A DNA stretch of 18,505 nt from a virus, in the UHGV virus genome UHGV-0309262. One strand, 5' to 3'. Both the position numbers and the translations under genes were made by a program. Shown here piece after piece: positions 27 to 14,598 of the stretch (position 1 is the first letter of the stretch; each line of letters begins with the position of its first letter). The notes under the pieces are model-generated. The model was not told the origin of the DNA, ran no database searches, and saw only the letters and a list, made by a program, of their open reading frames with translations.

Positions 27-55
27 CCACAACGTTTTCCGCATACCTCTTCAGT

Positions 56-140
56 GCCGAAGTGGCGAAATCGGTAGACGCAGTTGATTCAAAATCAACC
101 GTAGAAATACGTGCCGGTTCGAGTCCGGCCTTCGGCACCA
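56..140 (+). tRNA. leuX: tRNA-Leu (anticodon CAA), 85 nt, ending in CCA
   Basis: Sequence GCCGAAGTGGCGAAATCGGTAGACGCAGTTGATTCAAAATCAACCGTAGAAATACGTGCCGGTTCGAGTCCGGCCTTCGGCACCA has cloverleaf features: anticodon stem GTTGA/TCAAC with loop TTCAAAA (anticodon CAA), a long variable arm, T-arm GGTTCGAGTCC and encoded CCA. Recognised from memory as E. coli leuX. Confidence 0.9.
110..140. repeat. attL core: 31-bp tRNA 3' end, repeated at 14568..14598
   Basis: CGTGCCGGTTCGAGTCCGGCCTTCGGCACCA occurs identically at 110..140 and 14568..14598. Flanking sequence diverges immediately outside the repeat. Confidence 0.8.
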
Positions 141-1276
141 AGTCACTAAATTCCTTACAATACAGCTAGTTAGACAATAAAATCTGTCTCTTTTGCCTGT
201 AAGAAATGCTCTGTTATGTCCCTTGAAAAAGCCGCTGTGGTTGATAGTGGTAATTGGGATGTTAACTCATAGCGGCGTGTAGTTCCAAGCGTCAAACACG
301 TACTGACTCAACTTGAAAGCTATGACGTAGCCACCGTCTCTAAACAATCCCAAAAACTTTTAGTGAAGCGCATTTTAGCCCGATGCCCCCGTTCTGTCGC
401 CGTCGCGAGACGCCGCAGGGGATAAACAGGTTATGGTGGTCACGGTACTTGCAGACCATATGCAAGCTCTGCCAGCGGTTCGGCCTCGCTCCCCTTGGGT
501 ACATGGTCATCCTGATAAGCCTTACTAACTGACATAACCTTGATGAAGTCGCCAGAGGCTCCGCTTGTTGTCTTACCACCAACGGGGCTAATGGTTGGTA
601 TTGCCAGATTACTTAGCAGAGGGGCATAAAGGCACTTCGGAGATCCCGTCCCAAGCGGCTCTCAGGGACTTGTGCGCATGAAGTAATGCGGTTGTACTGG
701 GTATGTGCGCACAACCTTCTACAAGCCGCATTCTACCGTTAGTCAGTAGCTGGCTCCCCGGCTTGAAAAATTGCACGCTTATGGTTGCCCCTCCCTCAAC
801 TCTATAGCTCGCCCGCGCCCCCGTGCACATGTGCGTGCCCGCGCGTCAGGGGTCGCTGAGAAAACCCTAAGATTTTGCTCATCCGAGGCAACCGTTGCAG
901 GCGCGAAATGCTGGACGATTGCTGCTGCCGAATGTGGGTGCGGGCGATTGATTTTCACTGTGTATCTGTACATCCCTCTAAAACGATCTGTGCCGCGTTC
1001 TACGGCGTCCTGTGCTTTCGGTGTGTGATTTAACGTCTGAGTGATTTCGTGATCGTGGCGGTGCCGTGGTGATCTGCTACGTGCGCCGTGGGGCTTTGCT
1101 GCTGTGGTGCGGTGCCAGTCTGTCGCGGCTGCGCCTGTCTCATTCGGGTATACCGCATTGTGATGTGCCGCCGCTGTCGCAATCAAATTTATTTTATACC
1201 CTATTGACCACGGTTTTTAAGTGTGATCTCCTTCATGTCGGGATGTGATACTTCACTGAGATTTGGAGGGGGAATC

Positions 1277-1906
1277 ATGAATAACGTTCGTCTGTATGCC
1301 CGGGCATCCACCGCCGAGCAACACGCCGACCGTGCCGTTCCTGCGCTGGAGGATTTCGCTAATGAGCGTGGTTGGTCTATTGCTGCGCGATACATCGAGA
1401 ACGCCAGCGGTGCGCGGCTGGAGCGTCCTGAACTGATGCGCCTGCTGGGTGAGGCGGAGGCTGGCGACGTTCTACTTGTTGAAAGCATAGACAGGCTAAG
1501 CCGCCTGACACAAAAGGAATGGGCAACACTGAAACAGAGGATTCAGGATAAGGGGCTGGTGATCGTCGCCGTTGACCTGCCAACCTCGTGGCAGTTGCTG
1601 AACGAAACCGCGTCAGAGCTAACCAGCGGCATCCTCAGAGCCGTTAACGCAATGCTGATCGATATTCTCGCTACAATGGCTCGCGTGGACTACGAGACGC
1701 GACTGATGCGCCAGCGGCAGGGCATCGCACGAGCCAAAGCTGAGGGGCTTTACCGTGGGAGCCAGAAGGATGTTGCTGCCCGCGAGACTGTCCGGGAAAT
1801 GCTGGGGCAGGGTGTGAAACCTGAGCGCATCATGAAAGCTGCCGGGATAAGCCGTGCAACGTTCTATCGCATCAAGCGAGAGCTGGCCGCCAGCGTTACG
1901 GAGTGA
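1277..1906 (+). CDS. Serine recombinase (resolvase/invertase family), 209 aa
   Basis: N-terminal VRLYARASTAEQ matches the catalytic-serine motif (Y-x-R-x-S-T-x-x-Q) of small serine recombinases. C-terminal ISRATFYRIKRE resembles a helix-turn-helix. SD GGAGGGGG at 1265..1272 precedes ATG 1277. The ORF track's upstream start at 1223 is in frame but less likely. Confidence 0.75.
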   Translation: MNNVRLYARASTAEQHADRAVPALEDFANERGWSIAARYIENASGARLERPELMRLLGEAEAGDVLLVESIDRLSRLTQKEWATLKQRIQDKGLVIVAVDLPTSWQLLNETASELTSGILRAVNAMLIDILATMARVDYETRLMRQRQGIARAKAEGLYRGSQKDVAARETVREMLGQGVKPERIMKAAGISRATFYRIKRELAASVTE

Positions 1907-2894
1907 TGGCCTACAAGCGAATAAGGTGCTATGACTGGCCGTTACTGGGCTGTGGGTGATGGATTACCTACAGCTTTCGTATTAATTTCAGAGCGTTATG
2001 TTATGCACGATGTCGTAATGCTATGATTTATAATGTATTTTCGTATTACTTGCGGCTCTCGATGTGAAGAGATGGCGGGGCTTTAGCCGTGCCAGACGAT
2101 GAACATCGAGATCAGATTGTGAATGTGATTTATCACTGAAACAATTCCCGGTTGGGGGCGGGGAAGGATTCAACGCTAATTGGTTATGTCGTGGTGCTGG
2201 GTTACATGCTGTTTCTATAGGCTTTTAATGATTTCAGCGTACACGTGTACACTTAACCAATTATCTATGGAGGTTCTTATCTGGTGTCATCTCCTAGATG
2301 GCAAGTGCTGCGCCTCAGTGACGCCGCTTTGCCCTAACGCGGAGACGTTCCGCCGTCTCCACACCTCTCGACGGTGCTGCGCTTCTCGCGTCCGCTAGTC
2401 CGCTTTCATTCGCCTTCGGCTCATTCATCGGCCTGCGTCCGCTGCTGATGCTCGGCCCTCCACGCAACCGTGCTTGCCGGGCAGTCAACGCGGCGGGGAT
2501 GTGTAGTGGAACGGTACTCTGTATCGGTATTACTTCTGTATTCCATCTTATCCTGATATCGGTACGGTATTCTTCATAACATCTTCAATTCATTTCTGTA
2601 GCATTCAATCATCTTCCTTGTTCGTTTCCTTCCAGATCTTAGCCGTTGGTCATTGGTCTTACTGCCAGCTATGGCACACCGTCACGGTCTACTGCTGTAC
2701 TATCTGTTACCTGTTACTACTGCCTTCACTGGTTTCCGGTTGTCAGTCCTACGGTCTGCCATCCGTCATCCGTTCGGCGCTCGCTTGTTTCGGCTGCGCC
2801 GCGCTCGCTCTGCGTATCTAGCGATACTATATCACTATAGACACTTTCATAATTATCTATTGATATCAGTAACTTATATTTTTAATTTTAAAGG

Positions 2895-3146
2895 CTACTA
2901 ATAAGGAGATATAGAGCATTACTTTCCCGCTTTTGACCGACAAAAAATCGAGTTGTTAAGTATTGCCAGCCCAGGCCCAGTAAGGCTTAGCGAGGTGGTG
3001 ATTAAAAATTGACCTAATAAAAGTATCTACTAAGGAGAAAGAATAACTCCCGAAGTGAGACAAACTCTCCGATTTTGAAAGTGACTATTAAGGCAGATAA
3101 AGACACTGACACTGTTGCCGACATGAAAACCTCTATAAGGGCAGAG
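2895..3146. repeat. Array of 4 degenerate direct repeats (consensus about CTAnTAAGGnAG) upstream of the helicase gene; possible iterons or operator sites
   Basis: CTACTAATAAGGAG (2895..2908), TCTACTAAGGAG (3027..3038), GACTATTAAGGCAG (3083..3096) and CTCTATAAGGGCAGAG (3131..3146). None is followed by an ORF, so they are unlikely to be ribosome-binding sites. Confidence 0.4.
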
Positions 3147-3215
3147 AGTCTGCCGCACCTGTACCACCGCCCCAACCTGAGCTAATACCTACCCCTATTT
3201 TCTGGAGATTTCACC

Positions 3216-5060
3216 ATGCCAACAAACCTACGCCGCCTGCTTGCGCAGGCTGCTGACGCCGAACCGCTGAACACTGCGATTGCCGAAGCTCAGCAATTGG
3301 TTGCGGAGAAGATCGTTATACCTCATTCCAAGTTATGCCCTGTCAAACAGCGACCTGTGAAGGCTGCGTTTAACACGGAGTCCGGGCAGTATTTCTACAA
3401 TGCAGATGGTTCCGTTATGTCGTTCCGTGAATGGAAAGAGGCGAACGGAATCGGACGCAAGACACACGCCCGCCGCGCTGATGCTGGGCTACGTCAGATT
3501 ATCCAGCCCGGCGACGCAATTCATTGTCAACGCGCTGAGATTGATCAATGGCTCAACAAGAAGCCTGCCCGGTACGCCGAACCGCTGCCGCCAGATTTTC
3601 CCGGCGTTCGCGTTGACGATGCCGCTCTGAAACCACGTGAGCACGCCATCCCGGAAGCGACCACGGGGCAAAACGCCTTTCTTAAAGCCTGTCGCGAGTT
3701 TCTGATTTGTGATGAGAAGACCATCCGCCGCATCAATCGTGGCATGAGCAAGCTGGAGGCGATGCGCCACGCTGACTTTGACACCCTCGGGGATAGCCCG
3801 GAGTTTCACCAGCTATGGGGCAGTGAGCTGAAATCCACTAAGGACAATTTCAACACGAAGAACCAACACTGTGACGTTGGCGGCGCTGACCTGCCGCCGT
3901 CCATCCCGCCTCTGGTTACAGCGCCGTACAGGTTCCGTGAGCTGGAGCAATGCGACCGCCCGGCATTCGTACCGTTACCGCCGCCAGATGGTCATGACTG
4001 GCGACCCGGTCAACTCGACGTGGCCGCCGCTGTGTTTGCCCGTGACCGCGATATGTTGGCCGTACTGCCGACCGGGTACGGAAAGACGGCTGCATTCACC
4101 TATGCCCTGCATTTTGAGTCTGATGCTGGCGAAGGTATGACCGTTATTGTCGTGCCGACGAACACTATCAAGCAGCAGGTGCTAGAGCAGTTAAGGGAGG
4201 CTGGCGTTCACGCTGTGGCATTTGGCGATAAACTACCGAAGCGGCGTAATGCGCAGCAACTTGCGGGGTTGGCTGCTGGTGCTTTCCGCGTCGCAGTCGT
4301 TTCGCCTGAACATCTGGTGCCGGGTAGTCAGGTGCTTGCCGCGCTGATGGCCGCTGGTGCGGACAGATTTATCATTGACGAGGTGCACACCGTTGATGAA
4401 TGGGAGTTCCGGGACGCTTTCCCTGCAATGAAGCACACCCTGCAAAATGCCTTCCCGGATGCTCAGCGGTGCGCGTTTACTGCGACCCTGCGAAAAGGTG
4501 ATGAGTCTGGCTTGATGAAAGAGCTTGGCTGTCGTGGCGAGTTCCTCACCTACCGCGCCAGTGCTGCCCGTGAAAACATCCAGCTTATTCCTGCTCAGCA
4601 ATGCGTAACTCCGCGCCGGGCTGCCGTTGGTCTGGTCAATGCGCTGCCGGAGAATGAAAAGACATTGGTGATGGTGGACAGCATAAAGATGCTGTATGCG
4701 TATCTCAACGAACTGGGAGACCGTGCCCGGCCTTATCATTCTGACGTTGAGCGACTGAGCCGCGATCAGCGGCACGCCAACGCAGAGTGGTTCTCCAGCA
4801 CGCCCGGCGCTGTTCTGGTGGCGACCAAAGCCTTTGGCCTCGGAGCCGATATTTCTGACGTGCGTAACGTAATTGTCACTTATGTTCCGGAAGACCTGCC
4901 CGATTTGGTGCAAATGGTTGGCCGTGCCGGGCGCGATGGTCAACCTGCCCGTGCTTTCATACTCTGGTCATCGTTGGCGCTGGGGGATGCGCCTGATGAT
5001 TTGGCGGCGTTGTACCAGCCCCACAATGCTAACTGGGGTTACATCTCCCGCTTCCTCTGA
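3216..5060 (+). CDS. RecQ-like SF2 DNA helicase with an ~270 aa N-terminal domain of unknown function (614 aa); probable replication or recombination protein of the element
   Basis: Helicase motifs read from the translation: motif I LPTGYGKT, motif II IIDEVH, motif III FTAT, and motif V/VI VATKAFGLGADISDVRNVI...QMVGRAGRDG, which closely resembles the RecQ signature QExGRAGRDG. SD GGAGA 7 nt upstream of ATG 3216. Confidence 0.8.
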   Translation: MPTNLRRLLAQAADAEPLNTAIAEAQQLVAEKIVIPHSKLCPVKQRPVKAAFNTESGQYFYNADGSVMSFREWKEANGIGRKTHARRADAGLRQIIQPGDAIHCQRAEIDQWLNKKPARYAEPLPPDFPGVRVDDAALKPREHAIPEATTGQNAFLKACREFLICDEKTIRRINRGMSKLEAMRHADFDTLGDSPEFHQLWGSELKSTKDNFNTKNQHCDVGGADLPPSIPPLVTAPYRFRELEQCDRPAFVPLPPPDGHDWRPGQLDVAAAVFARDRDMLAVLPTGYGKTAAFTYALHFESDAGEGMTVIVVPTNTIKQQVLEQLREAGVHAVAFGDKLPKRRNAQQLAGLAAGAFRVAVVSPEHLVPGSQVLAALMAAGADRFIIDEVHTVDEWEFRDAFPAMKHTLQNAFPDAQRCAFTATLRKGDESGLMKELGCRGEFLTYRASAARENIQLIPAQQCVTPRRAAVGLVNALPENEKTLVMVDSIKMLYAYLNELGDRARPYHSDVERLSRDQRHANAEWFSSTPGAVLVATKAFGLGADISDVRNVIVTYVPEDLPDLVQMVGRAGRDGQPARAFILWSSLALGDAPDDLAALYQPHNANWGYISRFL

Positions 5061-5103
5061 GCTAACTGGCTCGCCTGTTTAATTTCCTCTCTGGAGAATC
5101 CAC

Positions 5104-5535
5104 ATGCCTGATGAAACCGTGCGGCAACGCGCGGGGCGTTCTGACGCCCTGATTAATGCGCAGCTCGCTTACGCCCTGAACGGGTATTCATTTGATGGGT
5201 TGGCCGAACGTCATCGCAAGACCCTTAACCGGGAGGCCATCCTTCGCGAGGTGTCCACGCCGCTGGAGCGATATTGCCTTTTGAATGATTGCGAACCGTG
5301 GGAGTGTCTGGCCGCTGTGCTGAACCGCATGAAAAGGCCGGATGGCTCACGTTGCTGGAAAGCTGTCCGCCTGTCTGAGCGGGTTTTTAATGGTCGAGTG
5401 CATCCAGTGCGCAAGACACCTGATGAAGTTTACGCCGCCATTGCCCGCCGTTTATTTCTGCCGAAGCCCGTGCATCAAGAAGTGATACAGCACATCCGGG
5501 CGCTTGGCCTGTTACCAGTTGGAGATAACCATTAA
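5104..5535 (+). CDS. Hypothetical protein (143 aa), first gene of a coupled operon
   Basis: ORF with SD GGAGAA 6 nt upstream of the ATG. Its stop overlaps the next start (TAATG). No recognisable motif. Confidence 0.55.
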   Translation: MPDETVRQRAGRSDALINAQLAYALNGYSFDGLAERHRKTLNREAILREVSTPLERYCLLNDCEPWECLAAVLNRMKRPDGSRCWKAVRLSERVFNGRVHPVRKTPDEVYAAIARRLFLPKPVHQEVIQHIRALGLLPVGDNH

Positions 5536-5744
5536 TGACCAAAACCGAGTTTGAAGCTGGGACATGGGATATGCGGTGCCTGTTGCTGGAGGCGCTGACC
5601 CGCCGCCTGAAAGAGGACTCCGCTGGAGAATCCCGCATGGCTGCTGCCGAGCTGTCATCCTGCGTGAACTTCCTCAAGCAAAATGCCGCCGATGCGCCGG
5701 ACGCATCTTTCAATAACGTGTTCCCGGAGGATGACAACGAATGA
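5535..5744 (+). CDS. Hypothetical protein (69 aa), acidic C-terminus
   Basis: Start overlaps the preceding stop (TAATG) and the stop overlaps the next start (ATGA), indicating translational coupling. Confidence 0.45.
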   Translation: MTKTEFEAGTWDMRCLLLEALTRRLKEDSAGESRMAAAELSSCVNFLKQNAADAPDASFNNVFPEDDNE

Positions 5745-5932
5745 CGCCGCACCAGTTTAGAGCGTGGTTTAACTCGCTGCCTGAGAAGTACCAGAAGCAG
5801 GCCAAAGCCATGTACGACAACGCCCGGCGCGGCGGTGGTATCCATACCGCATCCAGCCTCGCTTTGATTAAAGACCTTGTAGAAGATTCGATTAACTTTG
5901 ATGGAGAGTTCCAGTATGACAACCACCAGTAA
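5741..5932 (+). CDS. Hypothetical protein (63 aa)
   Basis: ATGA overlap with the upstream gene; in-operon position and consistent coding composition. Confidence 0.45.
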   Translation: MTPHQFRAWFNSLPEKYQKQAKAMYDNARRGGGIHTASSLALIKDLVEDSINFDGEFQYDNHQ

Positions 5933-6494
5933 CGCAACCCTGACCCTGCGCGATATTCAGCTTATCAATAAACTGAGTATTGTTGACCACCTGAACAACG
6001 ATGAAATCTCTTCTCGCACTGGTTTCAGCCCGAGCGACATCGACCGTGTAATCCGTGGCGTCTATGTCGATGACTTGGCCGAACAGTGGAAAGACGATGC
6101 TGATATTACTCTGGCTGAATACAACGCCATCCGCAGCCGCTATAAGCCCGGCAAGCTGCACCGTGATACGGAATTTATGATTGCCCGCGATACGCTGATT
6201 CGCCCTGAAACCGTGCTGGCTATCGCTCATTCCAGATTCCAGAACGCCCACACTCACCCTGCGCCGAAAGCCGTTAAAGTGAAGCCGGAGAAAGCGAAAG
6301 CCATGCGCAAGCTGGTGCCTTCTGATTTGGATGAAATCCACAAGTTAGAGCGCTTTGGCTGGCCTGTCGCTGACATCGCCCAAAAGCTGGACGTTCCGCC
6401 AGAGGTGATCGCTTTCGTTAACCGCTGCTTAAAGAGCCGCTGGCCGTATGGTGACATTCTGGAAAATGTTAATGCGAAATGGGGAGCCGAGTGA
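5916..6494 (+). CDS. Hypothetical protein (~192 aa)
   Basis: ATG at 5916 is preceded by GGAGAG at 5902..5907. The ORF track's earlier TTG start at 5898 lacks an SD. Stop overlaps the next start (TGATG). Confidence 0.5.
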   Translation: MTTTSNATLTLRDIQLINKLSIVDHLNNDEISSRTGFSPSDIDRVIRGVYVDDLAEQWKDDADITLAEYNAIRSRYKPGKLHRDTEFMIARDTLIRPETVLAIAHSRFQNAHTHPAPKAVKVKPEKAKAMRKLVPSDLDEIHKLERFGWPVADIAQKLDVPPEVIAFVNRCLKSRWPYGDILENVNAKWGAE

Positions 6495-6724
6495 TGGAAG
6501 ATAACGACATCATTCACCCTGCAATTGACCCGACTCAATACGTCAACCTTGACGAGATGCGGGAAGGCTACGCCCCTGTTAAGCCGCAGGGGTGGGACAT
6601 CCTGACGCAGAATCTCCGAAGTGAGGCCGCACCCGAACAGCCAGTCACCGCCCGTGGACGCCGCCAGCGTCCGCGTGGCTCCGCTGGCGAGCGCCGTTGG
6701 CTACGCCGTCACGGGCTTATTTAA
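6494..6724 (+). CDS. Hypothetical protein (76 aa), Arg-rich C-terminus
   Basis: ATG 6494 overlaps the upstream stop; GGGGAG SD at 6481..6486. Confidence 0.45.
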   Translation: MEDNDIIHPAIDPTQYVNLDEMREGYAPVKPQGWDILTQNLRSEAAPEQPVTARGRRQRPRGSAGERRWLRRHGLI

Positions 6725-6738
6725 CTGAGGATTATTTC

Positions 6739-6978
6739 ATGAGCACCATCATTTTAATGGAGCCACGCCGCGCGGCTGATTGCGGGCAACAACTGAAATT
6801 CATTGCTGACGCCTTGAATCTTCGTCAAATCGACTTGGCTCGTGTGTACCAGATCGACAGACAAGATCTCGGCAAAGCGTACCACGGACAGAAGATGATT
6901 CCTGCCCGATGCGTACATGCGCACATGCTTTTACTTGAACTGGCGCACCGCCGAGTTACATCACAAGAGGTTGCATAA
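6739..6978 (+). CDS. Hypothetical small protein (79 aa)
   Basis: ATG 6739 is preceded by GAGG at 6727..6730. The track ORF starting at 6697 overlaps the previous gene and is less likely. Confidence 0.4.
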   Translation: MSTIILMEPRRAADCGQQLKFIADALNLRQIDLARVYQIDRQDLGKAYHGQKMIPARCVHAHMLLLELAHRRVTSQEVA

Positions 6979-6980
6979 TT

Positions 6981-7676: not shown

Positions 7677-7690
7677 CTGGAGAATTCCAT

Positions 7691-7954
7691 ATGTACGATG
7701 AGAATAGAATCCGAGTCCTGACCGAGGTAGAGAAACAATCTCACTCGGTCGATAGCATTCTTTCCATTCTGCTTGATAAATACCCCAGCACCAGCCCCGA
7801 CCATCTGACGCGTGTCGCTGAATGCCTCGTTACTTTTGGCTGGGGTGTTGCTGAATACGATGCGTACCGCGCCGGGATGCTTGGCGAAGAGAAGCGCCAG
7901 ACGATGGTCGCTTGGTTTACTGAGCGGAATTCCGCGCAACGCTGGGCTGCCTGA
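7691..7954 (+). CDS. Hypothetical protein (87 aa)
   Basis: ATG 7691 with GGAG SD 8 nt upstream, just after the upstream stop at 7674..7676. The ORF track's 7574 start lies inside the preceding gene. Confidence 0.45.
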   Translation: MYDENRIRVLTEVEKQSHSVDSILSILLDKYPSTSPDHLTRVAECLVTFGWGVAEYDAYRAGMLGEEKRQTMVAWFTERNSAQRWAA

Positions 7955-8224
7955 TTCCGATGCCAGCGCCTGACGGTGCATTGTGGGCTGCAAGTCCGAC
8001 TGGACACCTGACCCTGCGAATTAACTACTTACTGTCCACTAATCGCTGAGAGCCGCGCCAATTCTGGCCTAGCAAAGCCAGTTTCGGGTACTCGGAGACT
8101 TTTCTATCAATCTGCTTTAACCCTGATTTTCCATCTCTCTGAATCCTGCCACGGCGGGAGGATTACGCACGCCTGCACCATGACGATGGCGCGGGCTTCA
8201 TCAACCTACGTAGGAGTTTTGTTT

Positions 8225-9220
8225 ATGGCTGATACTTCGTACAGTCCCGATCTGTTTCGCCCACATTATGGCGGGGTGGAATCCGACAATGATATTCACA
8301 TCGAGGCTTATGACCGGGATGTCCAGACCCGTTTAGAGTCCAAATCCGTATTTCTGGCCGAGGGGCTGTCTACATACAGGCCGCTGAAAGGCAGCAACCA
8401 ATACCGCATTGATCGCCTGAGTGGTGATCTTGAGGTGAAGGGCAGAACCGCAGGGCAATCGCTGGAGCCTACCGCCGTTAAGTCGGACAAGCTGATCATC
8501 TCTGTGGATACTCTGAGCTATATCCGCATCCCGATTGATTATCAAGATGACTGGACTGCACCCACCTTTCGCGCCGAGCTGAGCCGCAACATGGGGACAG
8601 CCCATGCGAAGTTTTACGACGAAGCGCACACCATCCAGTTAATCAAAGCGACTGACTTTGTACCGCCGCCGACACTGCAACCAACGTTTAACCCGCTTAC
8701 GGGCAATGTTGTCTCGCTCGACCTGACAGCGGGGAGCGAAGAGGACGCCGCAAAAGAGCTGGTTCACGCTATCAAAGCTGCTGTTGATCGGTTCCTGACT
8801 GAGAAAGATATTCCGGTGGTGGAGTTGTGTCTTCTCATCGACCCGGCTTGGTTCAGCATCCTGATGGAACACAAGAAGCTGATGAACGTCCGTTATAGCC
8901 GGGATAGTGGCAACGATTACGCGTGGCGGCGCATCGGTTACGTGGCCGGGGTGCGAGTCATTGAGCTGAACAGTTACCCGCAGGAAGCCATTACCGGGCA
9001 TGAGCTGGGCGCTGATTATGACGTTACCGCAGAGGAAGCGCTGACGAGGGCGACGCTGTTTAAACCCTCCTCGGTACTGTTGACGGTCGAAGCACAGAGC
9101 GTCATCAATCGCCAGTGGGATGATGAACGCGAAATGACGGTGGTGATGGACTCATATCGCCTGTTCAACGTTGGGCTGCGTCGTCCTGATTGCGTTATCA
9201 ATTTCCGACAATCTGCGTAA
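8225..9220 (+). CDS. Hypothetical protein (331 aa); possibly structural, but this is a weak guess
   Basis: ATG 8225 preceded by AGGAG at 8210..8214, following a 270-bp intergenic gap. Size and position after a low-complexity protein loosely resemble a scaffold/capsid arrangement, but no motif confirms it. Confidence 0.5.
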   Translation: MADTSYSPDLFRPHYGGVESDNDIHIEAYDRDVQTRLESKSVFLAEGLSTYRPLKGSNQYRIDRLSGDLEVKGRTAGQSLEPTAVKSDKLIISVDTLSYIRIPIDYQDDWTAPTFRAELSRNMGTAHAKFYDEAHTIQLIKATDFVPPPTLQPTFNPLTGNVVSLDLTAGSEEDAAKELVHAIKAAVDRFLTEKDIPVVELCLLIDPAWFSILMEHKKLMNVRYSRDSGNDYAWRRIGYVAGVRVIELNSYPQEAITGHELGADYDVTAEEALTRATLFKPSSVLLTVEAQSVINRQWDDEREMTVVMDSYRLFNVGLRRPDCVINFRQSA

Positions 9221-9236
9221 CTGGAGGGGCTGGGTC

Positions 9237-9746
9237 ATGGTTAATGATACTTACGCCCCTGAGCTGTTGCGATCCCTTTTCCTGTACGACCCGGTGACAG
9301 GTCGCCTGCACCATAAAGCTAACCGACGCCGGGTTAAGGCTGGCTCCTGTGCTGACTCCACCCGTCGAGCTGATGGCTATCGTCAAGTTGCCCTGCGACT
9401 GGATGGCAAGCAGTACCAGCTAAAAGCCCACCGCGTGGCGTGGATTCTTGCGCATGGCGCTATTCCTGATGGTCTGCAAGTTGACCACATCAACGGTATC
9501 CGTGACGACAACCGCCTATGCAATCTGCGCTTGGTTACGCAGCGGGAAAACGACCAGAACCGACGCAGGGCAAAGGGTTGTAGCTGGAATAAGGGCTGTA
9601 GCAAATGGGAGGCTTACATTCGCGTTAATGGTGTACGCCATCACCTTGGCTTATTCACTAGCGAAGCGGCGGCGCGTGCTGCTTACCTGAAAGCAAAAGC
9701 CAGATACCATCCCTCGACCCCAGTCGATTTGTTAAATGCTGCTTAA
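9237..9746 (+). CDS. HNH endonuclease with AP2-like DNA-binding domain (169 aa)
   Basis: AHRVAWILAHGAIPDGLQVDHINGIRDDNRLCNLRLVTQRENDQNR matches the phage-type HNH_3 signature (H...DH.NG...DNR..NL......N). WEAYIRVNGVRHHLGLFTSEAAARAAY matches an AP2 domain. SD GGAGGGG 6 nt upstream. Confidence 0.7.
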   Translation: MVNDTYAPELLRSLFLYDPVTGRLHHKANRRRVKAGSCADSTRRADGYRQVALRLDGKQYQLKAHRVAWILAHGAIPDGLQVDHINGIRDDNRLCNLRLVTQRENDQNRRRAKGCSWNKGCSKWEAYIRVNGVRHHLGLFTSEAAARAAYLKAKARYHPSTPVDLLNAA

Positions 9747-9764
9747 ACTTTGGAGACGTAGTTT

Positions 9765-10199
9765 ATGGGGACTAAAAAGCAGGGTAGAGCAATCCGAGTG
9801 CTGCCAGATGATGACCCACGTCGCCAGCGGTACGCCGAACTGTTGGCGCAGGCTGGCCGGATGACTGTCCCCCGGTTGCATCCGGGAGACGCTAACAGCG
9901 TAATGAGCCAGCTCGCGACGATGCTTGGCGCACCAGTCCCGATAGTCGGCACTATGACGGAGCACGCCGCCGCATGGCGGACCTGCCTGCTGGAGCAAGG
10001 ACTTGGCGATCTGCTGGCTGGCTTGAGTAAGCAGGTACTGACCGTCTTCTTTCTGCTTTGCTGGAGAGACAGCGCCTTGCGGCAGGTTGGCAAGGAGCGG
10101 GAACGGCTTACGGCGGCCAGCGAAGGCTTGACCATTGAACAGTATCGGGCAATGCGCTCGGCTTACAGAGAGAATAAAGAAGATGATGACCACGATTAA
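9765..10199 (+). CDS. Hypothetical protein (144 aa)
   Basis: ORF with GGAGACG SD upstream of ATG 9765; in-operon position. Confidence 0.45.
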   Translation: MGTKKQGRAIRVLPDDDPRRQRYAELLAQAGRMTVPRLHPGDANSVMSQLATMLGAPVPIVGTMTEHAAAWRTCLLEQGLGDLLAGLSKQVLTVFFLLCWRDSALRQVGKERERLTAASEGLTIEQYRAMRSAYRENKEDDDHD

Positions 10200-10482
10200 A
10201 TTAAGGTGGCGGTACATCGATCCGCCGCCAATGGCTGGCGCACTCGCTGACCTGAAAGTGTGGGTAATGGATACCGGAGAGCCTGAGCTGGAAGCTGAAT
10301 TTCGTAAGCTGCTGGGGTTAATGCGCCGCAACGGTATCAGTGACGAACGCGTTAATGCGATGGCTGATGAGCTTTATGTTCTGGTACGGCAACGGCAGCG
10401 CGAAGAATACGAAGCCTGCAAGCGGGCTGCATCTGACAATGGAGACTTTGAATCATGGTTACACGGACAGACCAGCTACTAA
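10183..10482 (+). CDS. Hypothetical protein (~99 aa)
   Basis: ATG 10183 overlaps the end of the upstream gene. The 5' part of the track ORF (from 10135) overlaps that gene and is rejected. Confidence 0.4.
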   Translation: MMTTIKLRWRYIDPPPMAGALADLKVWVMDTGEPELEAEFRKLLGLMRRNGISDERVNAMADELYVLVRQRQREEYEACKRAASDNGDFESWLHGQTSY

Positions 10483-10883
10483 GAAAAGCTATGCGGGGCT
10501 ATCTGGAACACCTCGGCAACATGCCGTTGGCGGAACGGATTACAAACACTGCTGCATTCGAAGATGTGTATCGCTTCCTGTTGAATGGTTCCGGGCGTCT
10601 GGAGCTGCGTCGTGCTGATGTGGCCGCTGTCCGTTTCTTCTTGTGGAATTATCAATACCGCCGCTGTGCGGTGACAGGTAAGCCGCTGCGCCTTACGTCT
10701 GCCGTATTAGATCACTGCCACCGAACCGGGCGCGTGCGTGCTGTGGTGCATCGCTCTGCTAACGCTGCTGAGGGTGGCTACCATGCTGGGCGTTTGTGTG
10801 GGCTGTCGCCTAGCAGCATGAACGCGATGCTGGCGAGCTACCGCCAACAAAACCAAGGGCTGGGCGTTGTTTATCCGGGGTGA
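10455..10883 (+). CDS. Endonuclease VII-like (Holliday-junction/branched-DNA nuclease family) protein (142 aa)
   Basis: C-terminal CAVTGKPL...LDHCHRTGRVRAVVHRSANAAEG matches the Endonuclease_7 pattern (C..C...DH.H.TG.VR.....N...G). GGAGA SD upstream of ATG 10455. Confidence 0.6.
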   Translation: MVTRTDQLLRKAMRGYLEHLGNMPLAERITNTAAFEDVYRFLLNGSGRLELRRADVAAVRFFLWNYQYRRCAVTGKPLRLTSAVLDHCHRTGRVRAVVHRSANAAEGGYHAGRLCGLSPSSMNAMLASYRQQNQGLGVVYPG

Positions 10884-10895
10884 TGAGTTCTCGCT

Positions 10896-10917
10896 GCGCC
10901 GGGTTTGCACCCGGCAC
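10896..10917. terminator. Putative bidirectional hairpin between convergent transcription units
   Basis: GCCGGGT-TTGC-ACCCGGC stem-loop in the 55-bp gap between the plus-strand operon (ends 10883) and the minus-strand R gene (ends 10939). Weak U-tract. Confidence 0.3.
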
Positions 10918-10938
10918 AAAAGATGTTTAGCCCACTAG

Positions 10939-12015
10939 TCAGTGGGTTACGCAGTTTTCCATAAACGCATTAAGGAATTGATCTGTAATTCCTTGTGGTT
11001 TGCGTCGTTCACAAAGAGAATACAATTCTTCGACTGCTGAGTACGGGAAGAATTTTGTGTCCAGCTCTCGGAATTGCGGCATATTCGCAAACTCAATGAC
11101 TTTAGCACGATATTCATCGGGGGCTACGATTGTCCATCTGATATCTTGAAGCCGTGGGGCATAGTCACAAAAATTCTTCATCCGGGTTAACCCGCTTTTA
11201 ATCCCAGTGCTGTGCTCAATTTCCATCACGGCGGGCATTAATTTTCCATTTCTAAACCAAATGCAATCTATTAGTTTTGCACCGTCAATGGCCTCGCTGT
11301 ACGAGCTTAATACCTTTTCATTTGAGAGGCTATCAATTACCCCATCCATTTGAGCAATGACTTTTCCGTTATATTTAAGTCCGCGATCATTAGCTGCCAC
11401 CCATGTTCTGTAGCCTAAGTGGTGGCCGATTTTTACTAATGCAATCTGGATTTGTGCATGTCTTCTTGATTCTTCAATCGACATGCCCTCAACTGGGCGG
11501 ATCGTTTCCAGATCAACGCTTTGATATACAACCTCTGTTTTCATCTCTGATATTACAATATTAGCTTTGTATTCAGAGAGCTTACCGTTTTCGTGTGGCG
11601 AATTGGGTAAGTACACAAGATGCTTGTGGCCTTTCTTTACCGTCTGTTTAGTGTTAATAACTTCTAAACGGTCGAGTTTACACCAATAAAATTGCGGTGT
11701 GTGTGCAAGTAAACTCTCAATAACGGAACGGGAGTTATAGCTTGCACCAAGCACTCTATCTAAATTGATAGGTGCATCCTCTTGAATTGCATTAGCCAAA
11801 CGCCAAAGCATCTGGCTAGAGATGCTGTCTATTTTTGCATCTTTAAGCGTCTCGCCTTTGGTCGGATTAAAACGCTTAAAGCGTATCGGGCCTTGTGGTG
11901 ACTTAATCGAGTCGACGACAATCTTCCCAGCATTACTTTCATTCACATAATCAAACTGCCTGTTTTTGGGCAGGTTGGCTATCGCATTCACAAGATTCAT
12001 TGCTGTCAAATTCAT
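10939..12015 (-). CDS. Putative type II restriction endonuclease (358 aa), cognate to the adjacent methyltransferase
   Basis: Immediately downstream of, and overlapping by 65 nt, a C5-cytosine methyltransferase gene on the same strand. Similar low GC. AGGGA SD upstream of ATG 12015. The function is inferred from position only; no catalytic motif recognised. Confidence 0.5.
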   Translation of the reverse strand: MNLTAMNLVNAIANLPKNRQFDYVNESNAGKIVVDSIKSPQGPIRFKRFNPTKGETLKDAKIDSISSQMLWRLANAIQEDAPINLDRVLGASYNSRSVIESLLAHTPQFYWCKLDRLEVINTKQTVKKGHKHLVYLPNSPHENGKLSEYKANIVISEMKTEVVYQSVDLETIRPVEGMSIEESRRHAQIQIALVKIGHHLGYRTWVAANDRGLKYNGKVIAQMDGVIDSLSNEKVLSSYSEAIDGAKLIDCIWFRNGKLMPAVMEIEHSTGIKSGLTRMKNFCDYAPRLQDIRWTIVAPDEYRAKVIEFANMPQFRELDTKFFPYSAVEELYSLCERRKPQGITDQFLNAFMENCVTH

Positions 12016-13090
12016 CTTTTATCCCTAAATGCTCTAATATAGATTTTGCTATTCCGAAGGCTGCAAGGTAAGGAACACCATTACCAACAGTTTTGAACAT
12101 ATTTGAAAGAGTCATATAAGATGGCAATTCAAACTCTTTCGGCAAAGACTGAATGGCAAGCGCTTCTGCAACTGTTATTCTGCGTGGCTTATATGGATGT
12201 AAATGAACCTCGTTATTACCATAAGCAGCAGTCGGCGAATATCTCCAGCGGTGGAGGCGCTTGTAAGATTTTTTACTATCGTCACCTTCTGCAACAGCCT
12301 TGAAGCGTACTAATCCAGCTCTGGCCGTAAATACATGCTTCGCGTTCACATGTTCAGAAACATTATTTTTCTTAAACCAGTAATCAACAGTTAATTCTTG
12401 TGGGAGTGACTCTGGCATTGCAAGTGTAGAGTCCTCGGAAAATTCATTTGTTGTTGGCCAACTGTAACTAAAGGCATTACGATCCGGGTATAATCTGCCA
12501 CTCCAATTAAATGACTTGGCTAGTCTCTTACTTTGGAAACCCAATAGAATAATGCGCTCTCGGTCTTGCGGAGCACCGTATTCAATCGAATTAATCAACC
12601 TTTCATGAAGAGTGTAACCCACATCCATCAACTGCTCTTTGAGATGCTCAAAAAACTCGCGATGCTTGAGTGTGCGATATAACCCCTTGACGTTCTCGAA
12701 CAAGAAGAAGTCAGGTTTCATCTCTACAATTATATCAATGTAGCTTTGGGACAGCTTACCATTCTCCCCATCGCGCCCTTTGTTTTTGCCCGCAACGGAG
12801 AAGTCGGGGCAAGGTGGGCCACCAATGAAGCCAATCAGTCTTTTTTCTTTCTTGAGTGTTTTAATAGCGTCTTTCAACTGCTTGTGATCAACTTCCTCTA
12901 TGCTCTTTTCGGCATAGCCAAAACGAGGGATAGGCTTGTTCATTACCGCACGCGAGTGCTTGTAAGCATCCATAAACGGCGGGTGAAATTCATTCACAAA
13001 AACCACTTCGTAGCCTGAGTTTTCAAAGCCAAGGTCTAAAAAGCCTGAGCCGGAAAAGAAAGAGAAGATGGCGGGTTTAAGTGTGGACAT
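11951..13090 (-). CDS. DNA (cytosine-5)-methyltransferase (379 aa)
   Basis: C5-MTase motifs in the expected order: motif I FSGSGF (F-x-G-x-G), motif IV GGPPCP (the catalytic Pro-Cys), motif VI ENV (FLFENVKGL), motif VIII QDRER, motif X GNGVP near the C-terminus. Confidence 0.8.
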   Translation of the reverse strand: MSTLKPAIFSFFSGSGFLDLGFENSGYEVVFVNEFHPPFMDAYKHSRAVMNKPIPRFGYAEKSIEEVDHKQLKDAIKTLKKEKRLIGFIGGPPCPDFSVAGKNKGRDGENGKLSQSYIDIIVEMKPDFFLFENVKGLYRTLKHREFFEHLKEQLMDVGYTLHERLINSIEYGAPQDRERIILLGFQSKRLAKSFNWSGRLYPDRNAFSYSWPTTNEFSEDSTLAMPESLPQELTVDYWFKKNNVSEHVNAKHVFTARAGLVRFKAVAEGDDSKKSYKRLHRWRYSPTAAYGNNEVHLHPYKPRRITVAEALAIQSLPKEFELPSYMTLSNMFKTVGNGVPYLAAFGIAKSILEHLGIKDEFDSNESCECDSQPAQKQAV

Positions 13091-13225
13091 TTTTTACCTA
13101 TTGCTGATCATTAAGACATGCGAAAACGCCCCTGCATCTTAACAGATGAGGGGGTCATTGCAACGGATTGCGGGGAGCTGTAGCGATGAGCTGGCTCAGA
13201 TGAACGATTCAAACATCCATTAAAT

Positions 13226-14434
13226 TTAAAGGGCTATTTGATGGTTCACAAACTCCACGTAGCGTGATAGTTCGGCTGGGGCTGCTGCGTTTTTCGAATA
13301 TGTTTTGAAGCTCTCCGTGTTACCTCGCTCATGGCCGACGAGCAGGGCAATGCGATCCTCTGGCACTTGAGCACGGTCGAGCTGTTGCACAAACGCATGG
13401 CGGAGTGAATGAAACACTTTTCTCTCTGCGGCAGGCTCGCCAAGAGCTTTACGCTTTGCTCGCGTGAATTGTTGCGTATGCCACGTTGAGCGCTTCCCAT
13501 CGGCCCGGTCTGTAATAGATGCGTGATAGAACAGAAAACCGCTATGTGTGGTTTTGAGCAATGATTTCATGAGGGGGATTAACTTGCTGTGTACAGGGAC
13601 AATTCGCGCTGCGCTCTTAGTTTTCCCCTCGGTGATCTCAAAGCACAATATCCCCTCGATAGTTTTAATGCTGCTTTCACGTAGCGTACATATCTCATTG
13701 ATCCGCATACCGCTGTATGCACCAATAGCCGTTACCGCCTTCATCTCATCATCAAGCAAAGCATAGACCTTTGCCAGCTCACCCGGTGCGAAGACTTCAT
13801 AGCTGACCTTGCTGCTTTTTGCTTCGAGCGCATGACCGCGCCAAGGATTGTCTTGTGGCGCATCGTGATAGCGATTGCGTGCCAGATCCCATATCTGCGC
13901 CAGTGCGCTTATATAGTTTTGAATAGTTTGGGGCGCTCGCTCAGTTTTGAGCTTATCTAACCAGCCTGTAACTATGGTTCGGTTAATATCCCGCAACTGA
14001 ACATCTTTCTTTTTCAGGTGGGTTAACAGCACCTCTACGGCTTTGTTGGTCTTAGATAGCGTTGTTAGCTTTCTCTTCTCGCTGTATTGGAGAAGATACA
14101 GATCGCGCATTTTAAGTAGGGAGGGGCAAGCCTGAACCGATGCACCAAATGATGCGGGGGCTTCCTTGGCATATACACTGACACGGCGTAGCTCATCAAT
14201 GATTTGATCGACGGATGAGCCGCCTTGCGGTTTTAGCAGATTCCGTAAGCGAGTCCATTCCAGAGCAATAGCATCGCGAAACAAACGCGCTTGCCGTATG
14301 TCGCGTGTCCCTGTGCTTTTCATAAAGTAGCGCTTCCCTTGGAACAGGTGACGCATATAGCTGGGGATAGCTATCCGCACGAGGTAATTACCGCAGGGAT
14401 CTAAAACTAGATAACGATCTCTCTTGAAACTCAT
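13226..14434 (-). CDS. Tyrosine recombinase / phage-type integrase of the inserted element (402 aa)
   Basis: C-terminal catalytic signature: R in YSGMRINEI, HSLRHAF (H-x-x-R box), LLVGH, and the nucleophile Y in TESFKTYSKN. Lies next to the right direct repeat. Confidence 0.8.
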   Translation of the reverse strand: MSFKRDRYLVLDPCGNYLVRIAIPSYMRHLFQGKRYFMKSTGTRDIRQARLFRDAIALEWTRLRNLLKPQGGSSVDQIIDELRRVSVYAKEAPASFGASVQACPSLLKMRDLYLLQYSEKRKLTTLSKTNKAVEVLLTHLKKKDVQLRDINRTIVTGWLDKLKTERAPQTIQNYISALAQIWDLARNRYHDAPQDNPWRGHALEAKSSKVSYEVFAPGELAKVYALLDDEMKAVTAIGAYSGMRINEICTLRESSIKTIEGILCFEITEGKTKSAARIVPVHSKLIPLMKSLLKTTHSGFLFYHASITDRADGKRSTWHTQQFTRAKRKALGEPAAERKVFHSLRHAFVQQLDRAQVPEDRIALLVGHERGNTESFKTYSKNAAAPAELSRYVEFVNHQIAL

Positions 14435-14567
14435 ACAAACCCCGGTTATGTTGTCGGGGCTTTTTCATGGCTAAACAGTCTGTGAAATGTGCCGGGGTTA
14501 TGAGCTTTAGTCTCGCTGGTTCAATGATTTAACAATGATTCTTGAAGCAAGCTAAGCCGCCTAAACC

Positions 14568-14598
14568 CGTGCCGGTTCGAGTCCGGCCTTCGGCACCA
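14568..14598. repeat. attR core: displaced original 3' end of leuX
   Basis: Identical 31-bp copy of tRNA positions 110..140, located ~165 bp upstream of the P4-like integrase where an intact leuX would normally sit. Confidence 0.8.

Follow-up and report, generated by a model that had tools for sequence, protein, structure and literature searches.

A putative phage-satellite family with its own capsid gene, integrated at leuX beside a P4-like satellite

On balance, we favor the view that positions 141-14598 of UHGV virus genome UHGV-0309262 represent a previously unrecognized family of phage satellites, whose helpers would be T7-like podophages with a virulent lifestyle and genomes of ~42 kb (genus Bonnellvirus, Autographiviridae), and which here adjoins an older P4-like satellite at leuX. 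Helper dependence on Bonnellvirus is what we infer from sequence comparisons, and we found no description of such a family in the literature searched. The features of the window, by which we mean the whole stretch of 18,505 nucleotides that was analyzed, are collected in Table 1.

Integration at leuX and the P4-like neighbor

A repeat finder and direct reading both showed the 3' end of leuX to be repeated directly and without mismatch over 31 bp (CGTGCCGGTTCGAGTCCGGCCTTCGGCACCA; 110-140 and 14568-14598), and the two copies bracket an element of 14,458 bp (141-14598). The repeat lengthens to 57 nt at 81% identity (84-140 versus 14542-14598), and by our own arithmetic the number of perfect 31-bp repeats expected by chance in 18.5 kb is about 1e-10. 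An initial annotation of this DNA had described such a repeat around a block with its own tyrosine integrase, and both the repeat and the integrase were confirmed. The other genes that it named (a serine recombinase, a RecQ-like helicase, nucleases, a restriction-modification [R-M] module, and a second integrase) were likewise all present.

A search for empty-site alleles had been set beforehand as a check. Our query was a synthetic junction in which window positions 1-140 were fused to 14599-14998, an in silico excision that leaves leuX followed by intB. Of 5426 complete E. coli genomes, 688 contained this junction without interruption, and in strain 1368KP it was present in one piece at 100% identity over 540 nt, the sole case of 100% identity. 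Independent copies were also found. The element core occurred once per genome in 59 of the 5426 E. coli genomes, enteropathogenic strain EPEC E2348/69 among them, and family members were present in Enterobacter, Kluyvera, Kosakonia, and Trabulsiella as well (five genera with Escherichia). In 22AR0118 and E2348/69 the element lies at leuX without an adjoining P4-type integrase, other copies adjoin different P4-like elements, and one is located at a tRNA-Gly with a different integrase; near-identical copies were found across genera and contexts. Given the 31-bp repeat, the exact empty site, and the independent copies, the block appears to be an integrative element that is both inserted and excisable, having its own integrase and att sites that remain intact, as a satellite should.

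The island downstream of the empty site in 1368KP contains intB, the Hachiman genes hamAB, ogr/delta, psu, a sid-like gene, an icd-like gene, and the alpha primase, and it matches the right flank of the window at 99.9% identity. Judged by this match, the right neighbor is a genuine P4-like satellite, in agreement with the initial annotation. Because the element sits between leuX and this older satellite, leuX would hold two different satellites in tandem. The proposal of a second, later integration into the tRNA thus stands as far as the tandem array is concerned, since the searches for empty sites and for independent copies were both positive, and the same two results uphold the suggestion of an undescribed family of integrative element or satellite. 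That the element arrived later than its neighbor is likely, although the reverse order, with the P4-like element inserting second at the attR copy, is conceivable.

Table 1. Features of the window (positions in the 18,505-nucleotide stretch)
Feature	Position	Strand	Remarks
tRNA-Leu(CAA), leuX	56-140	+	ARAGORN; attL core is its last 31 nt (110-140)
Conserved attL-proximal arm	141-600		98% conserved in leuX copies; 346-605 92% conserved in tRNA-Gly copy
Cargo hotspot 1	601-755		Almost empty here; DUF3800, TIR, and other genes in relatives
Segment A	756-843	+	Copy of the Bonnellvirus site directly after the last late gene (endolysin)
Small serine recombinase	1223/1283-1906	+	Resolvase/invertase type (Resolvase + HTH_7; ~200 aa)
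Conserved non-coding region, 1.3 kb	1907-3215	+	No gene annotated there in any relative
Segment B	2693-2878	+	84-95% identical to Bonnellvirus terminal/early control region
Candidate rightward phage-RNA-polymerase promoter motifs	2889-2909, 3017-3029, 3075-3087, weaker ~3123-3146 (cluster 2889-3146)	+
SF2 RecQ/DpdF-like DEAD helicase	3216-5060	+	Orphan 255-aa N-terminal domain
Conserved core protein, 143 aa	5104-5535	+
Small-terminase (TerS)-like protein, 69 aa	5535-5744	+	Homologous to N-terminal half of Bonnellvirus TerS
Four conserved small core genes	5741-5932, 5916-6494, 6494-6724, 6739-6978	+	Weak HTH signals in 5916-6494
Short scaffolding-protein homologue, 231 aa	6981-7676	+	Phage protein ~410 aa
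Small variable gene	7691-7954	+	Between scaffold and capsid genes
Major capsid protein	8225-9220	+	HK97 fold, T7/phiKMV type
HNH_3 (homing-type) endonuclease	9237-9746	+
Two conserved core genes	9765-10199, 10183-10482	+
Endonuclease VII-like nuclease	10455-10883	+	Distant relative of Bonnellvirus endonuclease
Cargo hotspot 2	10939-13090	-	Type II R-M module; low GC
Type II restriction enzyme, NmeDI-like	10939-12015	-	PADLOC REase_II 8.5e-123; NmeDI_C
C5-cytosine methylase	11951-13090	-
Tyrosine integrase, leuX-specific	13226-14434	-	DUF6538 + Phage_integrase
attR	14542-14598	+	Element-borne tRNA-like stretch (14542-14567), then 31-bp core (14568-14598); doubles as attL of P4-like element
P4-type integrase (intB)	14750-16027	+	Resident P4-like satellite
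hamB (Hachiman helicase)	16276-18367	-	P4 defense hotspot; 5' part removed by IS1 beginning about 18368

Phage-related genes and non-coding segments

The case for a satellite rests on the capsid, scaffold, and terminase genes together with the cis-site evidence, all of which the initial annotation had overlooked: it missed the capsid, scaffold-like, and TerS-like genes as well as the phage-derived non-coding segments. The element's capsid protein is 57% identical to the major capsid protein of Bonnellvirus podophages (E 2e-133). Identity is at least 87% within the main element lineage and at most 59% to a divergent element lineage and to any phage, the range across sequenced phages being 51-59%. 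At this distance, the actual helper may be missing from the sequenced phages, or the capsid protein may serve a different purpose. The C-terminal ~100 aa of the scaffold homologue can be aligned to the very end of Autographiviridae scaffolding proteins, with a profile-profile probability of 97.2% (E 3.9e-11; controls at or below 2.2%), and the gene has a dN/dS of ~0.1. The similarity of the TerS-like family to phage TerS is short and weak (HMM E 4.6e-6 and 6e-5; hhalign 84.7%); all 11 of the family members examined match PF11123 only, and a database-wide tblastn search returned no match for the protein. The endonuclease VII-like nuclease matches the phage endonuclease at about 1e-4. Searches against phage by tblastx and HMM found no homologues of portal, large terminase (TerL), tail, or DNA or RNA polymerase genes in the element, and with its virion and replication gene set incomplete, it cannot form particles alone.

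Flanking the recombinase gene of the element are two non-coding segments, A and B, that share 75-95% identity with the terminal/early control region of Bonnellvirus; in the phage, the counterparts of both are enclosed by the endolysin gene on one side and the early promoters on the other. A core of ~45 nt in segment A is kept in all family members, including the lineage in which capsid identity falls to 59%, and the segment matches only 9 of 50,697 phage records. All 9 are Bonnellvirus-like: those with an assigned genus belong to Bonnellvirus, and the others bear the same closest capsid gene. Segment A is taken as a candidate for the left boundary of the phage terminal repeat, or for a packaging site. 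Fifteen Bonnellvirus-type phages have matches to segment B (84-95% identity, E down to 1e-70). Its allelic types are common to phages and elements, with megetsur, glasur, and HHU8 corresponding to type 2 and altidsur and LF82-23 to type 1. As in the phage, a leftward promoter-like motif lies within segment B (2850-2838 on the minus strand). Many copies that are otherwise 99% identical carry an unrelated module in its place, for which we found no phage match. The candidate promoter motif occurs 5 times per phage versus 0.4 expected and 3 times in the element versus 0.2 expected, and the element's copies cluster immediately upstream of the helicase ATG. The names "terminal-repeat boundary" and "promoter" are provisional and reflect our reading of the sequence rather than mapped physical termini or promoters of Bonnellvirus. 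The conserved non-coding region that includes segment B gave no Rfam match and is a candidate origin and control region. Taken together, the homologues of capsid protein, scaffold C-terminus, and TerS N-terminus and the segments common with Bonnellvirus suggest that the element carries functions and sites that would engage the packaging or assembly machinery of a helper.

The RecQ-like helicase is presumed to be the replication protein. It matches the PADLOC model "DpdF" (PDLC02858, 1045 bits); a Dpd (7-deazaguanine) defense system was ruled out, as dpdA/B/C and other dpd genes are absent and the helicase match stands by itself. The serine recombinase is present in every member, but its alleles are highly divergent (28-98% identical). 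Hotspot 2 is filled with other cargo in relatives, and across the family the two hotspots hold R-M, TIR, AbiTii, and DUF3800 defense genes. A Pfam scan found no gene in the attL-proximal arm, which in a circular form would lie upstream of int, across attP.

Family conservation and comparison with known satellites

More than 20 copies from five genera share an identical gene order and size, and none has portal, terminase ATPase, tail, or polymerase genes. Element size was 14.46-15.40 kb in nine copies although the cargo varies, and this narrow range suggests a packaging constraint. All core genes tested had dN/dS values of 0.05-0.4, those of the capsid gene being 0.07-0.17, which indicates purifying selection. 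Full synteny, steady size, and low dN/dS argue that the element is not a decaying remnant. In IMG/VR we found two matches, both integrated or provirus calls (L020 provirus), and no encapsidated form. The excess of contigs of 10-20 kb probably reflects assembly breaks at the 31-bp repeat.

The initial annotation had noted that the gene set resembles neither canonical P4 nor PICI layouts, and the comparison with known systems bears this out. The cf-PICIs (e.g., EcCIEDL933) encode a full head and packaging set (portal, protease, head-tail connectors, TerS, and TerL), take only tails, rely on temperate siphophages, and use AlpA-type regulation (10.1101/2022.09.08.507074). Like them, the element is an integrative element of Enterobacteriaceae of ~10-15 kb with its own HK97-fold capsid protein and small terminase, presumably with satellite-sized capsids, and with near-identical copies across genera; unlike them, it has only a capsid protein, a scaffold, and a TerS fragment, and its phage relatives are virulent T7-like podophages. 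We rejected a cf-PICI assignment on the absence of portal, prohead protease, head-tail connectors, and TerL (Pfam, PHROG, and NCBIfam on all open reading frames; tblastx and HMM versus phage), and neither an AlpA regulator nor a primase domain (Pri-Rep module) of PICIs is present, the replication candidate being the helicase. P4-like satellites have a defense-gene hotspot adjoining the integrase (PMC9122126), an arrangement that the element shares, along with the targeting of the same leuX 3' end and a size about one third of the helper genome. However, the helper of P4 is P2 rather than, as proposed here, Bonnellvirus, and P4 places an external scaffold, Sid, on the helper capsid and carries the helper cos site. 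A P4-like identity for 141-14567 was rejected because psu, sid, delta/ogr, the alpha primase-helicase, and a P4-type integrase are missing there and all present in the neighbor (as seen in 1368KP).

Satellites of virulent phages are represented by PLE in Vibrio cholerae and by PICMI/VEIME in marine vibrios (PMC10945586, PMC10803314, PMC9618062). The element resembles these in its proposed parasitism of a strictly lytic phage, in presumably being induced by infection rather than by the SOS response, and in its core nucleases. PLEs, in contrast, integrate by a large serine recombinase, remodel the helper coat with TcaP, and encode no capsid protein, and PICMI/VEIME are smaller, lack capsid genes, and fill heads of full size with concatemers. 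Both assignments were rejected: the element uses a tyrosine integrase, with a serine recombinase of the ~200-aa resolvase type, in place of the large serine recombinase and RepA_N of the Vibrio/ICP1 system, and at 14.5 kb with a capsid gene it is not a minimal, capsid-less satellite.

Two further systems resemble parts of the element. The SaPI protein CpmB is reportedly, from work by Dearborn et al. in 2017, a competing scaffold that redirects capsid size. The likeness lies in a short satellite protein with the coat-binding C-terminus of the helper scaffold and in a genome about 35% the size of the helper's; SaPIs differ in using the helper capsid protein, where the element brings its own, and in having temperate Staphylococcus siphophages as helpers. 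The ~15 kb of the element amounts to about 35% of the genome of the proposed helper, a proportion like that in the P4/P2 and SaPI/80alpha pairs. For T7 "pac" plasmids, Chung and Hinkle are said to have found in 1990 that a concatemer junction plus a phage origin/promoter suffice for packaging. Those plasmids, like the element, are DNA with copies of helper terminal-region sequence and a phage-promoter-like site, but they are laboratory constructs packaged as full-length concatemers, whereas the element is natural and has its own capsid genes.

Alternative explanations and the proposed life cycle

The element could instead be a non-transducing integrative defense island, spread by other means and never packaged, in which the phage-like DNA sites and the homologues of capsid protein, scaffold, and TerS have been exapted as decoys. 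Such decoys would disrupt the assembly of Bonnellvirus capsids, sequester the phage's terminase or RNA polymerase, or serve to detect infection. The defense genes in both hotspots, the HNH and endonuclease VII nucleases in the core, the distance of the capsid protein from every phage counterpart, the truncated TerS-like protein, and the IMG/VR result are all consistent with this idea. We nevertheless consider it unlikely, given that the size range suggests a packaging constraint, that a complete capsid protein and a scaffold with a coat-binding end are under strong purifying selection, and that near-identical copies are dispersed across genera and contexts without a conjugation or mobilization gene in the element (Pfam found no relaxase). 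Interference is also typical of true satellites, which makes this alternative partly a subset of the satellite reading. Less probable still is that the same satellite design serves another, unsampled phage (e.g., a podophage, temperate or virulent, whose capsid protein is closer), and that occasional recombination brought in the Bonnellvirus-like segments. The gap in capsid identity and the many copies without segment B, whose replacement module has no phage match, point in that direction, but every family member has segment A, whose matches are confined to Bonnellvirus-like phages, the allele types of segment B track those of Bonnellvirus, and Bonnellvirus is the nearest phage group for all four protein homologies.

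Phage genes and an integrase beside a tRNA might also suggest the decayed prophage of a temperate T7-like phage, or phage genes that came together by chance in a genomic island at leuX and do not now function as a unit, and automated tools do call such regions "prophage" (as in the L020 call). This is very improbable and already contradicted by the comparative data, in that the gene order, size, and missing genes are the same in all of the >20 copies, the att sites remain intact and the cis sites conserved, and dN/dS is about 0.1. An Autographiviridae prophage was specifically rejected: the single-subunit RNA polymerase, DNA polymerase, portal, tail tube, and terminase are absent, and homologies to Lidtsur/altidsur are limited to the capsid, TerS-like, and endonuclease proteins.

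Under the satellite model that we favor, the element would rest integrated by means of its own tyrosine integrase. Upon Bonnellvirus infection, the phage RNA polymerase would read the promoter-like motifs upstream of the 3216-10883 operon, and the element would excise and then replicate with the help of the helicase and the conserved non-coding region. To judge by homology and the size constraint, its own capsid protein and a shortened scaffold that keeps the coat-binding C-terminus would build capsids sized for ~15 kb, while the TerS-like protein and segments A and B would steer the helper's large terminase and portal to satellite DNA. The helper would supply the portal, terminase ATPase, internal core, and tail, for which the element has no genes. 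The two nucleases (HNH and endonuclease VII) would hinder the helper or other phages, as would the cargo of the hotspots, which in this copy is an R-M module.

Site-specific insertion at leuX and the spread of the family

The 3' end of leuX and a second copy at the far end of the element form a perfect 31-nt direct repeat, with 14,458 bp between the two copies and similarity that widens to 57 nt at 81%. The initial annotation had read this arrangement as a tandem island, and every gene that it placed between the repeats was located there (see the table). A P4-type integrase and a helicase gene of low GC content follow the second repeat on its right. We joined window 1-140 to 14599-14998, giving a 540-nt in-silico excision junction, and searched it against 5426 complete E. 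coli genomes. The junction was contiguous in 688 of them, and in strain 1368KP it was 100% identical over all 540 nt. In that strain leuX is followed by a complete P4-like satellite (intB, hamB/hamA [Hachiman] in the P4 hotspot, ogr/delta, psu, sid-like, icd-like and alpha primase genes), which is 99.9% identical to the right flank of the window up to 18368.

Independent copies were found as well: the element sits at leuX without an adjoining P4-type integrase in strains 22AR0118 and E2348/69, other copies adjoin other P4-like elements, and one copy occupies tRNA-Gly with a different integrase. The empty site, these copies and the P4-like neighbor alone at leuX together bear out the proposed site-specific insertion in a tandem array. 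The further claim that the element arrived last is likely, since the P4-like element exists alone in near-identical form, although this order is not strictly proven. The tRNA-like DNA that adjoins the attR core on its left belongs to the element, and an attP mimicking the tRNA would be expected to carry it.

The right neighbor (window 14599-18367; in the compared locus L010, 16304-27810) is a genuine P4-like satellite with Hachiman (hamAB) in its defense hotspot, and one tRNA gene therefore carries two unrelated satellites, stacked. An IS1 splits hamB in the window, matching the IS1 end in E. coli S1 at 100% over 139 nt; the Hachiman system of this P4-like satellite is probably inactive.

Features of the window and of the element that it carries
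Feature	Position (nt)	Remark
tRNA-Leu(CAA), leuX	56-140	ARAGORN
31-nt repeat, leuX copy	110-140	leuX 3' end
Element	141-14598
Segment A	756-843	Bonnellvirus-like, non-coding
Serine recombinase, resolvase type	1283-1906	in initial gene list
Segment B	2693-2878	Bonnellvirus-like, non-coding
ATGAARGTRWCTR copy, leftward	2850-2838	inside segment B
ATGAARGTRWCTR copies, rightward	3017, 3075
ATGAARGTRWCTR copies, weaker	2889, 3123
Helicase, RecQ-like, DEAD-box	3216-5060	in initial gene list
TerS-like protein	5535-5744	69 aa
Scaffold-like protein	6981-7676	231 aa
Major capsid protein (MCP)	8225-9220
Core protein	10183-10482	99 aa
HNH_3 endonuclease		in initial gene list
Endonuclease VII		in initial gene list
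NmeDI-like type II restriction enzyme and C5 methylase		in initial gene list
Tyrosine integrase		inward from right end; in initial gene list
tRNA-like element DNA	14542-14567	left of attR core
31-nt repeat, right copy	14568-14598
P4-like satellite	14599-18367
IS1	18368-18505

The core of the element was present in 59 of the 5426 complete E. coli genomes, always one per genome and including that of EPEC E2348/69, and with unchanged gene order in Enterobacter spp., Kluyvera, Kosakonia and Trabulsiella. Capsid proteins of this main lineage are at least 87% identical to one another, at most 59% identical to any other sequence and at most 57% identical to that of any phage. A deeper lineage in Enterobacter hormaechei has the same layout and a capsid protein that is 59% identical; its representative (L130, Logan SRR35738729, 796-13363) has in addition, upstream of the helicase, a further HNH gene and a regulator of the pRha family, and it keeps the core of segment A. 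The capsid gene has a dN/dS of 0.07-0.17, the scaffold-like and TerS-like genes about 0.1, and the other core genes tested 0.05-0.4.

Despite unrelated cargo, the att-to-att length stays within 14.46-15.40 kb (n = 9 copies). The element has about 35% of the length of the proposed helper genome, and the satellite/helper ratio is likewise about 35% for P4/P2 and SaPI1/80alpha. Cargo occupies two hotspots. The one between the left arm and segment A is empty in the window and holds DUF3800, TIR and other genes in relatives, while the one between endonuclease VII and the integrase holds the restriction-modification (R-M) genes in the window and TIR, AbiTii, PvuII-like R-M and other genes elsewhere. 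In one near-identical copy (L109, 12729-15767), which adjoins a relaxase-bearing (TraI_2) element, the second hotspot contains a PvuII-like R-M system with its controller (C) protein, and the integrase is different. A family member in E. coli UTME-7 (4229-17349) lies at tRNA-Gly beside the ETT2 secretion locus and has a different tyrosine integrase, a truncated capsid gene and no HNH gene. It looks to be decaying, and it argues that integrase modules are exchangeable. The small serine recombinase is found in every copy, with alleles only 28-35% identical among otherwise similar elements; resolution of multimers or cointegrates is a possible role.

Capsid, packaging and helicase genes

An open reading frame that the initial annotation overlooked encodes a major capsid protein. 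It matched PHROG 267 at 1.9e-70, four solved podophage capsid proteins at 1e-57 to 1e-81, and the capsid protein of Escherichia phage Lidtsur at 57% identity (E 2e-133). Its nearest phage relatives are all Bonnellvirus, virulent phiKMV-like Autographiviridae of ~42 kb with E. coli K-12, Enterobacter, Kosakonia, Pantoea and Cronobacter as isolation hosts. The scaffold-like protein is encoded directly before the capsid region, and its last ~100 residues align with the very C-terminus of scaffolding proteins from Autographiviridae (hhalign probability 97.2%, E 3.9e-11), and controls with the reversed sequence and ten other families all gave at most 2.2%.

The TerS-like protein resembles the N-terminal half of the Bonnellvirus TerS (pairwise E 6e-6). 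A family HMM searched against all six-frame ORFs of two phages gave 4.6e-6 and 6e-5, and hhalign gave a probability of 84.7%. The signal is weak: tblastn of the 69-aa protein against all phages found no match, and the homology is detectable only by profiles. PF11123, the T7-type small-terminase family, was the sole match of the family members (11/11). The 99-aa core protein showed a weak, non-significant similarity to the central part of the Bonnellvirus TerS (hhalign 5.8%, P 0.0065; HMM E 0.02-0.2) and might be a second terminase-related fragment. In profile comparison, the endonuclease VII of the element matched the phage endonuclease at about 1e-4. Searches by tblastx and HMM revealed no portal, large terminase, tail, core, or DNA or RNA polymerase homologues in the element, and Pfam searches no relaxase.

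In a search of 5.8 billion proteins, the 255-aa N-terminal domain of the helicase was confined to the family; it had no PDB match, and an HTH-like core protein had no significant one. The helicase matched the PADLOC model PDLC02858 ('DpdF') over its full length at 1045 bits, and this model was therefore evidently built from the satellite family of the element; outputs of defense finders may mislabel family elements as partial Dpd systems.

Non-coding DNA shared with Bonnellvirus phages

Against 50,697 phage records, the only matches of segments A and B were to Bonnellvirus DNA. Nine Bonnellvirus-like phages matched segment A at 76-82%, and Lidtsur at 72.7%; all family members retain the ~45-nt core of this segment, CCCGGCTTGAAAAATTGCACGCTTATGGTTGCCCCTCCCTC, even those of the lineage with the divergent capsid protein. 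Fifteen Bonnellvirus-type phages matched segment B at 84-95% (E down to 1e-70), whereas the capsid genes reach no more than ~70% at the nucleotide level. The phages have A 36-45 nt past the endolysin gene, the last late gene, and B ~440 nt beyond A; the first early gene and the sigma-70 early promoters come right after B. In the element they are ~1.9 kb apart, with the serine recombinase gene between them.

The terminal repeat of T7-like genomes is located in the region between the last late gene and the early promoters. Homology between phage and element begins exactly at the start of segment A (CCCCGGCTTGAAAA) and ends exactly at the end of segment B (...CAGTAACTTAT), and we predict a Bonnellvirus terminal repeat that runs from CCCCGGCTTGAAAA to near ...CAGTAACTTAT. 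In a search for a Bonnellvirus record showing physical termini, that of glasur was found to open inside segment B, without duplicated ends, and the paper on the LF82 phage does not give termini.

Segment B occurs as two allelic types, each in both phages and elements: type 1 in phages altidsur, LF82-23, Kc261 and ROV85 and in the window, 22AR0118 and Kluyvera copies, and type 2 in phages glasur, megetsur and HHU8 and in the S1, WP8, E2348/69 and one metagenome copy. The B of an element can resemble that of a phage (about 90%) more than that of another element (about 81%), which implies that elements have repeatedly exchanged sequence with particular helpers or been matched to them. Many otherwise near-identical copies have segment B swapped for an unmatched module, and this replacement may reflect specificity for a different helper. 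In loci L107-L114, which share 99.2% identity with the window across 3196-14597, a different 1.5-kb module (3438-4970) that includes a called 100-aa ORF takes the place of window 2181-3196; the module had no match in the phage collection.

The motif ATGAARGTRWCTR, often extended by CTAAGGA, occurs five times per Bonnellvirus genome at no more than one mismatch (0.4 expected), and four of these are on the coding strand. One copy directly follows the RNA polymerase gene, one precedes the replication genes and one lies leftward within segment B, and the motif co-varies between phages. The element has three copies against 0.2 expected; every rightward copy lies no more than 330 nt ahead of the helicase start codon and is kept in relatives. 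These candidate promoters suggest that the helper RNA polymerase may transcribe the operon at 3216-10883. In altidsur (31205-31244 and 10717-10755), ~30 nt around the promoter-like motif of segment B recur inverted, directly after the RNA polymerase gene, and the equivalent pair in Lidtsur co-varies; the pair may define the Bonnellvirus promoter.

A 1.3-kb non-coding region ahead of the helicase gene is conserved in all copies. An Rfam scan of the window returned the tRNA only, scanned sigma-70 promoters and terminators were not in excess over shuffled sequence, and a search for iterons or repeats in 560-3300 gave nothing convincing.

A satellite reading and its alternatives

The element integrates site-specifically and has spread horizontally, selection has kept a partial head and packaging module while the remaining virion and replication genes are absent, and its protein and DNA homology is specific to one phage genus, Bonnellvirus. 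These features are consistent with a satellite that lives off virulent phages of the Bonnellvirus type. In such a satellite the helicase would replicate the element, and the HNH and endonuclease VII nucleases and the cargo would serve interference. Our fullest version of this reading, to which we give somewhat less than an even chance, makes the family the first satellites of virulent T7-like coliphages (Autographiviridae). In it, the RNA polymerase of the helper would itself directly switch on the chromosomal element. The element's MCP and short, truncated scaffold would build one-third-size heads, combining a CpmB-like competing scaffold with a cf-PICI-like capsid of its own. Segments A and B would mimic both boundaries of the helper terminal repeat so that element DNA is cut and, with the TerS-like protein, packaged by the helper portal and TerL motor, and the tail would come from the helper.

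Several observations limit the satellite reading: the MCP is far from known phage capsid proteins, the TerS signal is weak, and segment B is not universal. Neither the IMG/VR matches nor contigs with the exact capsid protein revealed an excised or encapsidated element; an excess of 10-20 kb contigs among the latter was rejected as evidence of excision, since assembly with k=31 would end contigs at the repeat of 31 bp. The chief alternative is a defense island, with R-M, TIR and Abi genes as its business and the phage-like parts merely decoys; set beside the selection on the head module, we consider it unlikely. Less probable again is a helper outside the sampled phages, an idea to be weighed with the distance of the MCP on one side and the close matches of segment B on the other. 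A prophage remnant is contradicted by the comparative data and is highly improbable.

Among known systems, cf-PICI was rejected (the element has no portal, protease, connectors, TerL or AlpA), as were P4-like, PLE, PICMI/VEIME and prophage, whose defining features the element lacks. A Dpd system was rejected too, the helicase being the sole component with a match. The satellite that we propose resembles cf-PICI in having its own capsid, SaPI in its short scaffold with a helper-like C-terminus, and PLE and PICMI in its virulent helper. We rate it a new family within the phage satellites. Within the subset of journals covered, we found no description of it in literature on Autographiviridae or Bonnellvirus satellites, on the E2348/69 leuX island or under RefSeq protein accessions, and no satellites of T7-like phages in the literature searched.

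With the element in the reference EPEC strain E2348/69 and Bonnellvirus phages isolated on E. coli K-12, every proposed step is directly testable. T7-like phages are the best-studied virulent phages and common therapy candidates. If the satellite reading is true, these phages would activate a resident element that in turn blocks them and rides on them, which would explain strain-specific resistance to this phage group. The element would also represent a new intermediate between capsid-stealing satellites and those encoding all capsid parts, a natural system for terminal-repeat recognition in T7-type packaging, and a vehicle for R-M, TIR and Abi defense genes among Escherichia, Enterobacter, Kluyvera, Kosakonia and Trabulsiella.
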